NCBI GenBank assembly: GCA_016188545.1
Contig: JACPHO010000001.1
Location: 14,249 to 78,248, forward strand
DNA: 64,000 bases
Reading direction: 5' to 3'
Source: Candidatus Shapirobacteria bacterium
GTDB lineage: Bacteria; Patescibacteriota; Microgenomatia; UBA12405
The stretch's first letter is position 1, and each line of letters starts with the position of its first letter. Below the pieces are notes generated by a model. That model did no database searches. It was not told the DNA's origin and saw nothing but the letters and a program-made list of their open reading frames with translations. The translations under genes were made by a program, and so were the position numbers. Shown piece after piece: positions 36,924 through 57,253 of the stretch.

Positions 36924-38501
36924 TGTACTAAGAGTTTGATCGTGGCTCAGGGTAAACGCTGGCGATGTGCCTAAGACATGCAAGTCGAACGGGATTTGTA
37001 GTCTACACGAAGACATTGATAACTTCTTAACTTTTTTTAAGTCTTTCCACTTTTGGAATATTTTTTTGAACTTTGATAAGAATCGATTATTGTAATCATT
37101 TCGATGTTTTCGTGTAGATTATAGATTCAGTGGCGAACGGGTGAGTAATGAGTACGAACGTACTCTCAAGCGGAACATAGCCCACCGAAAGGTGGGGTAA
37201 TTTTCCATAGTCTCGAAAGAGTAAAGACGCAAGTCACTTGAGAAGCGGCGTACTTGCCACCAGCTAGTTGGTAGGGTAACGGCCTACCAAGGCTATAACG
37301 GCTAACGGCTCTTAGCGGAGAGTCCGTCACAATGGGACTGAGACACGGCCCATACTTCTACGGAAGGCAGCAGTTAGGAATCTTGCACAATGGACGAAAG
37401 TCTGATGCAGCGACATCGCGTGAAGGATGAAGGCTCTCGGGTCGTAAACTTCTTTTATTTTGCCATGAAGGCATTTTGAATCAGCAACTACTAACTACGT
37501 GCCAGCAGTCGCGGTAATACGTAGGTTGCAAGCGTTACCCGGTTTTATTGGGCGTAAAGCGTCTGTAGGTGGTTTTATAAGTCTTATTTCAAAGACTCCG
37601 GCTCAACCGGAGATAGGGGTAGGATACTGTAAGACTAGAGTGATATCGGGGTTACTGGAATTTTTAGTGTAGGGGTAAAATCCGTGGATACTAAAAAGAA
37701 CACCAAGCGCGAAGGCGGGTAACTAGGTATTTACTGACACTCAGAGACGAAAGCTAGGGTAGCCAATCAGATTAGAGACCTGAGTAGTCCTAGCCGTAAA
37801 CTATGTATGTTAATTCTCTGCAATTTATTGTGGGGGATGTAAGCTAACGCGTTAAACATACCGCCTGGGGAGTATAGCCGCAAGGCCGAAACTCAAACGA
37901 ATTGGCGGGGAGGCGCACAACCAGTGGAGCATGTGGTTCAATTCGATACAAAGCGATGAACCTTACCTGGGTTTGACATTTATCTGCAAACCCCCAGAAA
38001 CGGGGGAATCCTTAGAGGGTGATAAACAGCTGTTGCATGGCTGTCGTCAGCTCGTGACGTGAGTTGTTCTCTTAAGTGAGGTAACGAGCGCAACCCCCAT
38101 CCGGTGTTATTGTGTCACCGGAGACTGCCTAGCATTATTTTGTTAGGAGGAAGGAGGGGACGACGTCAAGTCAGCATGATGCTTATGTCCAGGGCTACAC
38201 ACATCCTACAATGGGGAGGACAATGGGTCGCGAAACCGCGAGGTGGAGCCAATCCCACAAACCTTTCCTCAGTTGGGATTGCAGGCTGAAACTCGCCTGC
38301 ATGAACCCGGAATTGGTAGTAATCGCGCATCAGCAGCGCGCGGTGAATACGTTCTCGCCTCTTGCACACACTGCCCGTCAAATCAACAAAGTTGGGGGTA
38401 CCCGAAGCTTGGCCTTTGGCCGAATCAAGGTAAATCCAGCGATGAGGGTTAAGTCGTAACAAGGTATCTGTACTGGAAGGTGCAGATGGATCACCTCCTT
38501 T
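36924..38501 (+). rRNA. rrs: 16S rRNA (stand-alone), CPR/Microgenomates-like
   Basis: AGAGTTTGATC, GTGCCAGCAG.CGCGGTAA, AAGTCGTAACAAGGTA, GGATCACCTCCTTT; ends approximate. Confidence 0.98.
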
Positions 38502-47229: not shown

Positions 47230-47264
47230 TTCATACTTCTTAAATCATATTTCATAAATCAATA
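47230..47264 (+). repeat. Heptamer array (wTCATAh type)
   Basis: TTCATAC TTCTTAA ATCATAT TTCATAA ATCAATA, ending at the smpB ATG. Confidence 0.7.
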
Positions 47265-47668
47265 TGAAATTCTTCAATCGAGACTCCTTAGACTACGAAT
47301 TCAAAGACACTTTCGTTGCCGGTCTCGTCCTTACTGGTTCAGATGCCAAATCACTGCGCACTCAAGGTGTCCAATTCAACGGATCAAAAATAGAGATAAT
47401 TAACGGCATACCCACTGTCTTTAACCTTACTATTGAACCCTATAAGTTTGCCCAGTCACAGGAAGTCGATAAAACCAAGGAGCGTAAAATACTCCTTTCA
47501 AGTAAAGAAATAGCCAAGCTCCAAAGTCTTCGTAATCAAAAATATATGATCATCCCTGTCAGTATTTTTCTCAAACACAACTGGTTCAAGATGGAAATCG
47601 GCGTCGGCCGCAAGCTCCGCAAGTTTGAAAAAAGGGACAAACTCAAGAAAAAAGAACAAATGATATAA
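47264..47668 (+). CDS. smpB: SsrA-binding protein (divergent)
   Basis: NR...DY....F.AGLVLTG.D.KSLR, I.PY, RKILL..KEI.KL, K.EIG.GR....EKR. Confidence 0.88.
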   Translation: MKFFNRDSLDYEFKDTFVAGLVLTGSDAKSLRTQGVQFNGSKIEIINGIPTVFNLTIEPYKFAQSQEVDKTKERKILLSSKEIAKLQSLRNQKYMIIPVSIFLKHNWFKMEIGVGRKLRKFEKRDKLKKKEQMI

Positions 47669-47910: not shown

Positions 47911-48156
47911 TTATTCTTCAAAATGTTTCTTGGCAAATGCAATTCCTGATCCGGTTTTTAAATATTTCTCAAACTTAAAAGCAACCTCTTTATTTCTAAA
48001 ACAATGATATTGCCACAAAATCACTGGCAATCTTGATTTGGTATTTTTTACGTTACCATCCGTATGTTCCTTAAATCTATTTTTAAGGTTATCTGTACAC
48101 CCTACATAAAAACCATTATCCGCACACTTTAAAACATATACGATTTGCGCCACCAC
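47911..48156 (-). CDS. Small stand-alone GIY-YIG nuclease
   Basis: VYVLKC.D..FYVGCT.NL..R..EH..G, A..FEKYLKTGSG; start uncertain. Confidence 0.9.
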   Translation of the reverse strand: MVAQIVYVLKCADNGFYVGCTDNLKNRFKEHTDGNVKNTKSRLPVILWQYHCFRNKEVAFKFEKYLKTGSGIAFAKKHFEE

Positions 48157-48224
48157 AAAATAATACGCTAGTTTTATAGAAAGTAAAATATATTACAAGA
48201 AAAATATAAAGGAGGACTTTGTCA

Positions 48225-48255
48225 CTCCGAAGCTCCCCAAAGGGGAGCGAAGGAG
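48225..48255. repeat. Palindromic element abutting the tmRNA 3' end
   Basis: CTCCGAAGCTCCCC-AAA-GGGGAGCGAAGGAG; same family as 48334-48356. Confidence 0.8.
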
Positions 48256-48744
48256 GAGATGCCAGGTATTGAGCCCGGGTCCGAAAGTGGACAATAAAAA
48301 ACTTCTACAAGCTTAATTAATTTTACTTGCCAGTCCGTAGCTCAAAGAGCGAAGGATGGTCCGTCAGTCAATGGAAATTAACAAACCATTGTTGACTGTC
48401 GATTATTGAGGGCATTACCCCTCGCTTGTTACCTACCAAAATCGAGATTGATAGACCAGCATTCTTGTTTAATTTACACCGACTAACCTCCTCAAGAATA
48501 GGGGATTAACCGATGGTCAGCTCAATTATGCTTGCGCGTAGTTGAGATCAGCTTTTGAAGTACCCAAACCGAAGCCTGAGAAATCTAGAGCTAAATTGAC
48601 ACCGAAGTTTTTAGCTTTGGCATGTTTTTGTTTGACCCTGTTTTATCCGTTTTACAACAGATCCGGCTCGGCCGGACGACTCAATGGATCAAAGTCGGCT
48701 TGCGGTTTTTTAAGGTACTCACTCCGTCGATGCAATACATCTCC
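48254..48744 (-). ncRNA. ssrA: tmRNA (about 491 nt); tag ORF 48621..48526
   Basis: 5' GGAGATG...TCGAC; 3' GGAC-CCGGG-CTCAATA-CCTGG-CATCTCC; tag AKAKNFGVNLALDFSGFGLGTSKADLNYAQA*; smpB nearby. Confidence 0.88.
48334..48356. repeat. Palindromic element inside tmRNA
   Basis: TCCGTAGCTC-AAA-GAGCGAAGGA. Confidence 0.75.
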
Positions 48745-56018: not shown

Positions 56019-56061
56019 TATATTTTGCAAACTACATATTTATTAGGTAACATATTACCAA

Positions 56062-56142
56062 GTGTTAAGAAGATGCTAATCCATTGGCAACCGAGCTCAG
56101 CCACGGTGCCCTCAATAACACGCCTTTAATAATTAACAAAGG
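56062..56142 (+). promoter_or_regulatory. Candidate minimal SAM-I-superfamily riboswitch with SD-sequestering hairpin
   Basis: AAGA junction, GGCAACCG...CGGTGCC P3, GTGTTA/TAACAC closing helix, CCTTT/AAAGG over the SD; upstream of metK. Confidence 0.6.
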
Positions 56143-56146
56143 AAAA

Positions 56147-57253
56147 ATGAATTATCCTCAGTTCTCTTCCGAATCTGTCTGTGAAGGTCATCCCGATAAA
56201 GTTTGCGATCAAATCGCCGATGCCATTCTCGATGCCGCTTATACCATTGACCCCAAAGCTCGTGTAGCCTCTGAGGTTTTGGCAACAGCCAATAAATTAG
56301 TTCTGGCTGGTGAAATCACTGTAAACGGTGAACTAGACTTCGAAGCCATTGCTCGCAAAAAGATTGCAGAGTTAGATTATCTAGATCCTGTTCTGCAGTT
56401 CACTGACAAATCAGACATTGAGGTATTTATCCACAAACAATCACCAGACATCGCTCAAGGTGTCGATGCTGGTGGTGCAGGTGATCAGGGAATGATGTTT
56501 GGTTATGCCTGCAAAGAGACTCCTGAACTAATGCCCCTGCCTATTTCTATGTCTCACAGTCTGGCTAGAAAAATGGATGAATTGCAACGTATTCACCGCT
56601 GGTTACGTCCCGACGGTAAGTCACAAGTAACTGTCAGGTACGATGGTCAAACACCTTCCGTTATCGAACAAGTAGTGCTTGCCAAACCAATAAATTATGC
56701 AGCTGCTCCCCAAGATTATGCGCATTTCTTTTATGAGAATGTAGTTGTACCGGTCTTATCGGAATACGGATTTTCCGTTACCGAAGGTAAAATGATCCTA
56801 AACGGCACTGGTAAGTGGGAAATCGGTGGACCATTCTCAGACACTGGCGTAACCAATCGAAAAATTGTCGTCGACACTTTTGGAGGTATGGGAAGAATCG
56901 GTGGGGGTGGATTATCCGGTAAAGATACCACCAAAGTTGATCGCAGTGGGGTTTACGCTGCCCGTTATTTAGCCAAAAATGTAGTCGCTGCTGGTCTTGC
57001 TGATCGCTGCGAAGTCCAGTTAGCTTATGCCATCGGACAAGTCCAACCTGTCGGTAAAGCCATCGAAACATTTGGTACTGCCCGTTCCGAACAAAAAGTA
57101 ATTGAAGATTTCGCCTGGCAACTCCTCGACCTTTCTGTTGCTGGTATCAATGAAGGACTTTCTCTCCGTGTACCTATTTACCAAAAAACTGCTCGTTATG
57201 GACACTTTGGCAACAAAGATTATCCTTGGGAAAAGATTATCGCATCTCAATAA
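56147..57253 (+). CDS. metK: S-adenosylmethionine synthetase
   Basis: SESVCEGHPDK, GAGDQG, RPDGKSQ, GGG.SGKD.TKVDRS; ATG 56147 follows AAAGGA. Confidence 0.97.
   Translation: MNYPQFSSESVCEGHPDKVCDQIADAILDAAYTIDPKARVASEVLATANKLVLAGEITVNGELDFEAIARKKIAELDYLDPVLQFTDKSDIEVFIHKQSPDIAQGVDAGGAGDQGMMFGYACKETPELMPLPISMSHSLARKMDELQRIHRWLRPDGKSQVTVRYDGQTPSVIEQVVLAKPINYAAAPQDYAHFFYENVVVPVLSEYGFSVTEGKMILNGTGKWEIGGPFSDTGVTNRKIVVDTFGGMGRIGGGGLSGKDTTKVDRSGVYAARYLAKNVVAAGLADRCEVQLAYAIGQVQPVGKAIETFGTARSEQKVIEDFAWQLLDLSVAGINEGLSLRVPIYQKTARYGHFGNKDYPWEKIIASQ

Follow-up and report, generated by a model that had tools for sequence, protein, structure and literature searches.

A tmRNA of Candidatus Shapirobacteria without the alanine identity elements: a predicted, repeatedly evolved switch to serine

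Alanyl-tRNA synthetase (AlaRS) requires the G3:U70 pair together with A73, and leucyl-tRNA synthetase (LeuRS) requires A73 as well. Seryl-tRNA synthetase (SerRS) ignores the anticodon and reads the long variable arm, and the pair A3-U70 plays a role as a serine determinant; this pair is missing from the review table of Ser determinants. SerRS is sensitive to the shape of its substrate, since E. coli tRNA-Sec is serylated with an efficiency of about 1%. For tmRNA, the relevant sections of two reviews (PMC3985003, PMC3968760) call G3·U70 with A73 conserved in all ssrA sequences and describe helix 2 as pointing like the variable arm of a class II tRNA, while SmpB opens the elbow of the molecule to about 120 degrees (PMC3968760, same section). 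In part of another source, curators discarded tmRNA calls on the basis of alanine identity features (PMC4131195).

The window analysed here is the whole stretch of 64,000 nucleotides of a Candidatus Shapirobacteria genome (GCA_016188545.1, contig JACPHO010000001.1, positions 14,249 to 78,248). It carries a tmRNA gene in which both canonical alanine elements, G3·U70 and A73, are absent, as a sequence-only reading had pointed out. The features of the locus are the following:

48251..48744, minus strand: tmRNA (ssrA) gene, 494 nt to position 76, RF00023 match of 67.2 bits
48738..48744, minus strand: 5′ acceptor strand GGAGATG; A3 at 48742 replaces G3, and the contigs agree
48255..48261, minus strand: 3′ acceptor strand CATCTCC; U70 at 48257 gives a Watson-Crick A3:U70 pair
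48254, minus strand: U73 as discriminator; alanine-type tmRNAs have A73, and 39 of the 74 switched tmRNAs have G73
48262..48278, minus strand: T arm with a 5-bp stem and a 7-nt loop, from the Rfam model match and the letters
48716..48729, minus strand: 5′ strand of helix 2a (variable-arm mimic), 6 contiguous pairs with 48279-48295
48279..48295, minus strand: 3′ strand of helix 2a, pairing with 48716-48729
48526..48621, minus strand: tag reading frame of 31 residues, from the resume codon GCC to the stop TAA, with NYAQA at its end
48216..48254, minus strand: palindromic repeat hairpin, which begins at U73-C74-C75 of the tmRNA
47264..47668, plus strand: smpB, 134 aa, convergent with ssrA and about 580 bases away, PF01668 match of 103 bits

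The match covers positions 1-374 of the RF00023 model, whose gathering score is 47. All pairs are formed in the acceptor stem (7/7) and in the T stem (5/5), helix 2a contains 6 contiguous pairs, and the tag frame of 31 residues is open with its resume position identical to that of the aligned relatives; the tRNA-like domain, helix 2a and the tag frame were thus rightly described as intact. The gene does not encode CCA, since U73 is followed by CCT, and ARAGORN makes no tmRNA call at 48744-48251. The RNA nevertheless belongs to the tmRNA family, outside the alanine-accepting kind. The replacement of G3:U70 by A3:U70 is borne out by the letters at 48742 and 48257, and the U discriminator by the letter at 48254. 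Contigs assembled from the sequencing runs X1 and X2 span the stretch with 0 differences, although this DNA may itself stem from these two runs; contigs of runs X3 and X4 from the same study cover 48742, those of X4 also cover 48254, and no other letter appears. In the genome (981 kb, 92.6% complete) no second tmRNA over the RF00023 cut-off was found, and so no second, canonical ssrA copy of the kind that could have undone the claim. The C at the start of the T loop had also been noticed. It is present, and it does not mark the switch, being found in 21/74 tmRNAs with A3 and in 15/167 with G3. The RNA measures 494 nt versus about 430 in close relatives; the excess corresponds to hairpin insertions at 48331-48360 and 48645-48675 inside the gene and at 48216-48254 at the 3′ end (minus strand), one of the internal ones being a copy of the palindromic repeat of the genome. 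Elsewhere in the window, the 16S rRNA gene (36924-38501, plus strand) is interrupted close to the 5′ end by a long insertion, and 56057-56158 (plus strand) matches a SAM-I/IV riboswitch at 45.3 bits.

The search for tmRNA then covered 41 relatives, 104 genomes of the family (f1, Ca. Shapirobacteria), 132 from its order and 151 from its class (Microgenomatia, in the Patescibacteria), as well as the whole of two further families. Both ends could be read in 241 tmRNAs, a subset of all matches composed of the top scorers and hand-picked low scorers, which is therefore non-random and favours variants. This set leaves out G071, G108, G136 and G171, whose loci run off a contig or have no 5′ end called, as well as G374, which has no 5′ acceptor strand, and G935, a tRNA-Ser. 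Among the 241, 167 have G3·U70 with A73, 39 have A3:U70 with G73, 35 have A3:U70 with U73, and none is mixed. In f1 bins, 66/70 tmRNAs carry A3 (35 with U73, 31 with G73). Two of the remaining four look foreign (G070 and G097a, the latter adjoining a foreign SmpB) and were counted but kept outside the reversions, and two are G3/A73 tmRNAs of the family type (G087, G098). The single tmRNA read in the sister family f3 is A3/G73, and the other four families of the order have G3/A73 in 14/14. In other parts of the class, A3/G73 occurs in 3/3 tmRNAs read in family f25 and in 4/73 of family f9, where two of the four have G3/A73 congeners. All 8 switched tmRNAs outside f1 have G73, and within the 241 tmRNAs the U73 state is restricted to the family of the window. 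Across f1 the switched state is conserved, A3 going with a discriminator that is either U or G.

Pattern scans extended this survey. GTDB contigs were scanned for a 3′ tmRNA pattern with a non-A discriminator and one exact stem, which gave at least 119 stretches; among the matches listed, many true tmRNAs belong to Ca. Shapirobacteria, and the tmRNA-like matches with both ends all have A3. A 3′ pattern retrieved, from 401 genomes of the class, 24 of f1 (own genome included), 4/4 of f25, one of f9, and one tRNA-Ser; these 401 include the unpublished G197, which has no match. No switched tmRNA was detected outside the class by this pattern in 401 genomes of the phylum, where the five matches besides the own genome were one tRNA-Ser, one 137-nt RNA with G3 and U73, and three chance hits; viral contigs gave 0 matches. 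The 137-nt RNA (L529:245-381, minus strand, genome G638 of another class) scores 54 bits with the tmRNA model and has G3·U70 but U73, and it is too short to hold a normal message domain. At locus L464 of G374, a tmRNA without its 5′ acceptor strand reflects a broken gene or an assembly fault. Metagenomes were scanned with an f1 5′-end pattern that allowed G or A at position 3 and was blind to position 73. The resulting 93 loci comprise 28 cut short and 65 with both ends, of which 35 are A3/U73, 24 A3/G73, 6 G3/A73 and 0 mixed. Most unique sequences (47/56) are not identical to any tmRNA of the genome set, and four of these 47 are further G3/A73 tmRNAs of the family type. The combination of A3 with A73 was therefore found in none of 74 genome and 59 metagenome cases.

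The history of the two positions was followed on two trees. The tmRNA tree, built with positions 3 and 73-76 masked, gives 9 changes at position 3 and 9 at position 73; in 6/6 independent pairs on well-supported branches both positions changed in the same direction (sign test p 0.031), and among the A3 tmRNAs G and U were exchanged at position 73 about 21 times. A smaller number of events is not rejected by the tmRNA data taken by themselves (p-AU 0.30, 0.29 and 0.41). An RpoB tree was built for 28 genomes chosen for their contrasts, out of 30 searched, two of which were fragmentary. It yields 8 changes at each position, again with 6/6 independent pairs (p 0.031); G087 and G098 are nested within the A3 clade, below several of its starred branches, whereas G355 and G261 sit among G3 congeners. 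RpoB rejects a single A3 clade without revertants (p-AU 6e-8), a single clade of the four f9 genomes with A3 (p-AU 4e-33) and a single clade of the f9 genomes with G3 (p-AU 8e-43). The switch was gained in f1 with its sister f3, in one further family, and several times in yet another, and double reversions restored both bases. If close relatives exchanged ssrA by transfer, the number of events could be lower, but the coupling would stay intact. Positions 3 and 73 lie about 490 nt apart, do not pair with each other, and always change together; the joint change of two distant unpaired bases from the alanine set to a single alternative set, or back, is what a switch of identity would predict. The loss of alanine identity in tmRNA is real, conserved and repeatedly evolved.

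We then compared the second set with tRNAs. The unbiased set is that of the own genome only, in which 30 tRNAs were found, without tRNA-Phe and tRNA-Lys. The G-G-A start occurs only in the three tRNA-Ser; each of them has G73, and two agree with the tmRNA in every one of pairs 1-4. In the relatives, 39/39 tRNA-Ser genes read have G1-G2-A3-R4 and G73, and tRNA-Ala keeps G3·U70 and A73 in 20/20 genes fetched, as in 3/3 of the own genome; since the relatives' genes were chosen by tmRNA-model score or with a tRNA-Ser query, these counts favour typical stems. Both tRNA-Tyr of the own genome are short (73 nt), which leaves tRNA-Ser and tRNA-Leu as the only long-arm tRNAs found in it. Because LeuRS and AlaRS both depend on A73, a discriminator that is G or U but never A fits a reading by SerRS that is guarded against both enzymes. 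In the tmRNA of the window, G1:C72, G2:C71 and R4:Y69 of the serine set are present, together with A3:U70, which is invariant in tRNA-Ser of the lineage. The serine discriminator G73 is not, and U73 occurs in 35/74 switched tmRNAs and in 0/39 tRNA-Ser read. The minor serine elements C11-G24 and G30-C40 are absent too, as tmRNA has neither a D stem nor an anticodon stem; for this reason the RNA would work like a tRNA-Ser and is not one. Helix 2a, the element described as mimicking the variable arm in sections of two reviews (PMC3985003, PMC3968760), is paired; the elbow of about 120 degrees may misplace it for SerRS. Among the other tRNAs of the genome, one tRNA-Tyr has C1:G72, a tRNA-Ile has the anticodon UAU and a tRNA-Arg the anticodon GCG; the genes of a tRNA-Met (U1:A72) and of tRNA-Asn are interrupted, at about 300 nt.

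SerRS is encoded by a single intact gene in the own genome, and no change of SerRS tracks the tmRNA state: the revertants have the SerRS of the family type, and the switched G261 an ordinary one. In f1 and f3, motif 2 of SerRS reads RVH[F/N/Y/H]F for RVHQF, a change shared by the revertants and missing in G261; it could bear on the tolerance of U73. The alignment row of G034 in this comparison is a wrong protein. Neither helix 2a nor the D loop showed a feature separating switched tmRNAs from unswitched sisters, in a comparison in which the group means are unreliable and some rows mis-anchored. AlaRS (G000:C8:280287-281678 and relatives) is an enzyme of about 600 aa that stops once the editing domain is complete. 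The residue equivalent to Asp400, which in the E. coli enzyme positively reads G3 according to part of one study (PMC6055181), is Gln or Glu in 29/29 sequences, in G3 and A3 lineages alike; the equivalent of Asn303 is kept in the own genome and is Pro in f3. The loss of the Asp may be a permissive background that made the switch of the tmRNA cheap. It leaves the exclusion of A73 unexplained, A73 being itself a determinant for AlaRS. A-to-I editing at position 3 of the tmRNA was considered and rejected, as I:U is inactive for AlaRS in the results given there (PMC6055181).

The switched RNAs have kept the marks of a tagging function. The tag frame is open in 74/74, with a GCN resume codon and a hydrophobic end (for one or two of them the script chose a wrong start). 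The f1 tags have a median of 30 residues versus the usual 15, about twice as long, and often end in Cys. At the 3′ end, C74 is kept and positions 75 and 76 vary; a gene of the CCA-adding family is present in the genome. The neighbouring smpB, said to be intact, has an open frame scoring over the Pfam cut-off, yet it falls under two NCBIfam cut-offs and shares with its family an altered N-terminus and a short tail: in an alignment of 72 SmpB, the basic motif at the N-terminus is replaced by N[R/K][D/E]S in the f1 proteins, the Glu of GxEVKS is Asp, and the C-terminal tail is shortened. G261 combines a switched tmRNA with an ordinary SmpB. In the own genome (92.6% complete) no match was found for ArfA, ArfB or RqcH, nor for ClpP or ClpX; a clear ClpP was not found in 4/5 relatives, nor was ClpP in G168, a G3/A73 genome. 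Between smpB and the 3′ end of the tmRNA gene, beside a repeat hairpin, lies a gene of 81 aa for a GIY-YIG nuclease (47911-48156, minus strand; PF01541, 48 bits).

Taken together, the tmRNA of the window is probably serylated by SerRS, and in rescue the tag would begin with serine instead of alanine. It also appears rather likely, from comparative sequence data, that within one class of Patescibacteria trans-translation uses seryl-tmRNA in several lineages, and that these have toggled at least 7 times, reversions included, between an alanine identity (G3·U70, A73) and a serine identity (A3:U70, G73 or U73), with SerRS reading the tmRNA, perhaps bound to SmpB, through variable-arm mimicry. This is supported by the fact that A3 never occurs with A73, that the gains outside f1 have A3 with G73, the pattern of tRNA-Ser, and that the reversions restore both bases. 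In such a scheme the 3′ end would be trimmed and CCA added; SerRS would read G1:C72, G2:C71, A3:U70 and G4:C69 and take helix 2a as a long variable arm, and the non-A discriminator would keep AlaRS and LeuRS off the tmRNA. G73 would be the state of entry and U73 a later, tolerated one. EF-Tu would deliver the Ser-tmRNA-SmpB complex, and tagging would continue as usual. The sequence-only reading had proposed charging with an amino acid other than alanine, serine being the most plausible; conservation, coupling, the tRNA-Ser pattern and the reversions lend it strong comparative support.

Other readings account for part of these data. A relaxed AlaRS, perhaps aided by SmpB, might still charge the tmRNA with alanine; this alternative, already raised, is kept alive by the Gln or Glu at the Asp400 position in all sequences, by the short enzyme ending after its editing domain, by the additional loss of the Asn303 equivalent in f3 and by the divergent SmpB of f1. 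We consider it unlikely, because the same form of AlaRS is found in G3/A73 lineages and tRNA-Ala retains its two elements, while G261 switched despite an ordinary SmpB. Such an enzyme should also mischarge tRNA-Ser, whose first four pairs are the same and whose discriminator is G73, and it predicts tmRNAs with A3 and A73, of which none was seen among the genome and metagenome cases. Slightly more doubtful is the possibility that only the G73 forms take serine, the U73 forms, including that of the window, taking another amino acid or being charged at a low rate by several synthetases. tRNA-Cys, tRNA-Gly and tRNA-Thr of the own genome do have U73, the review table lists U73 as a Cys and Gly determinant, and the first residue of the tag need not be alanine (Nameki 1999, as cited in a section of PMC3985003). 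However, the synthetases for Cys, Gly and Thr need the anticodon and C2-G71 or C3-G70, which the tmRNA lacks, those three tRNAs match it at no more than 2 of the first 4 bases, and the numerous exchanges between G and U in f1 fit one enzyme indifferent to the two bases better than a recurrent replacement of the charging enzyme.

That the RNA is not aminoacylated at all, acts without tagging, or changed at both positions for the sake of processing or folding is very improbable. The missing ClpP and ClpX matches and the long, unusual tags would suit such a role; against it, every switched RNA retains its tag frame, its resume codon and a hydrophobic end of the tag, ClpP was not found in the G3/A73 genome G168 either, and the reversions restore exactly the two alanine elements. 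A sequencing error, a pseudogene or decay after the adjacent hairpin insertion, the last of which had been named as an alternative, can practically be dismissed. The repeat hairpin, of which the genome has 27 pattern matches, does start at U73 and is somewhat commoner after U73 (10/32) than after G73 (3/31; Fisher p 0.06), following 13/63 switched tmRNAs overall; it may help to convert G73 to U73. It cannot cause A3, since an insertion at the 3′ end is unable to alter position 3, and it is absent from 22/32 U73 and 28/31 G73 copies, that is, from most switched ones. The run contigs agree, there is no second copy, and the conservation of A3 throughout the family refutes this explanation. Serylation by SerRS remains the reading that we prefer.

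If true, a natural and reversible switch would overturn the universal alanine rule of the reviews, would show that a synthetase is able to read the long-noted resemblance of tmRNA to class II tRNAs, and would provide a two-base natural experiment on how an RNA identity crosses a fitness valley. The charging switch is directly testable, since it comes down to two point changes and nature offers sister pairs within single genera. The finding also bears on annotation, ARAGORN having missed the tmRNA of the window. A literature search, with subscription journals mostly outside its scope, returned no report of a tmRNA without G3·U70 or of a serylated tmRNA, and the main text of a 2025 tmRNA database paper (PMC11915505) does not mention the switch; its supplements probably contain such sequences without comment.

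Compared with the standard one-piece tmRNA-SmpB system (RF00023, PF01668), the switched lineage is alike in its tRNA-like domain, helix 2, resume codon and tag, and neighbouring smpB, and differs in having A3:U70 with U73 or G73 where the standard has G3·U70 and A73. With bacterial tRNA-Ser it shares G1:C72, G2:C71, A3:U70, R4:Y69, a long helix at the position of the variable arm and independence of an anticodon; the discriminator G73 is common to tRNA-Ser and 39/74 switched tmRNAs, the copy of the window having U73. Unlike tRNA-Ser, the tmRNA has no D stem or anticodon arm, its long arm is helix 2, and SmpB fills the lower half. The engineered E. coli His-tmRNA (Nameki et al. 1999, as cited in a section of PMC3985003) indicates that alanine is dispensable for trans-translation; that switch to histidine was made in the laboratory and in vitro, whereas the present one is natural, repeated and reversible, with serine predicted. 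The tmRNA of Carsonella, with A1:U72, likewise deviates naturally in its acceptor stem and comes from a reduced genome, but as presented in part of that work it concerns pair 1 in one lineage, is explained by gene overlap, and alanine identity is assumed to be kept (PMC4131195). Finally, tRNA-Sec and allo-tRNAs, in the passages describing them (PMC7609411, PMC9976931), show that SerRS accepts non-standard long-arm RNAs with G73; these keep a cloverleaf and decode codons, and tmRNA does neither.
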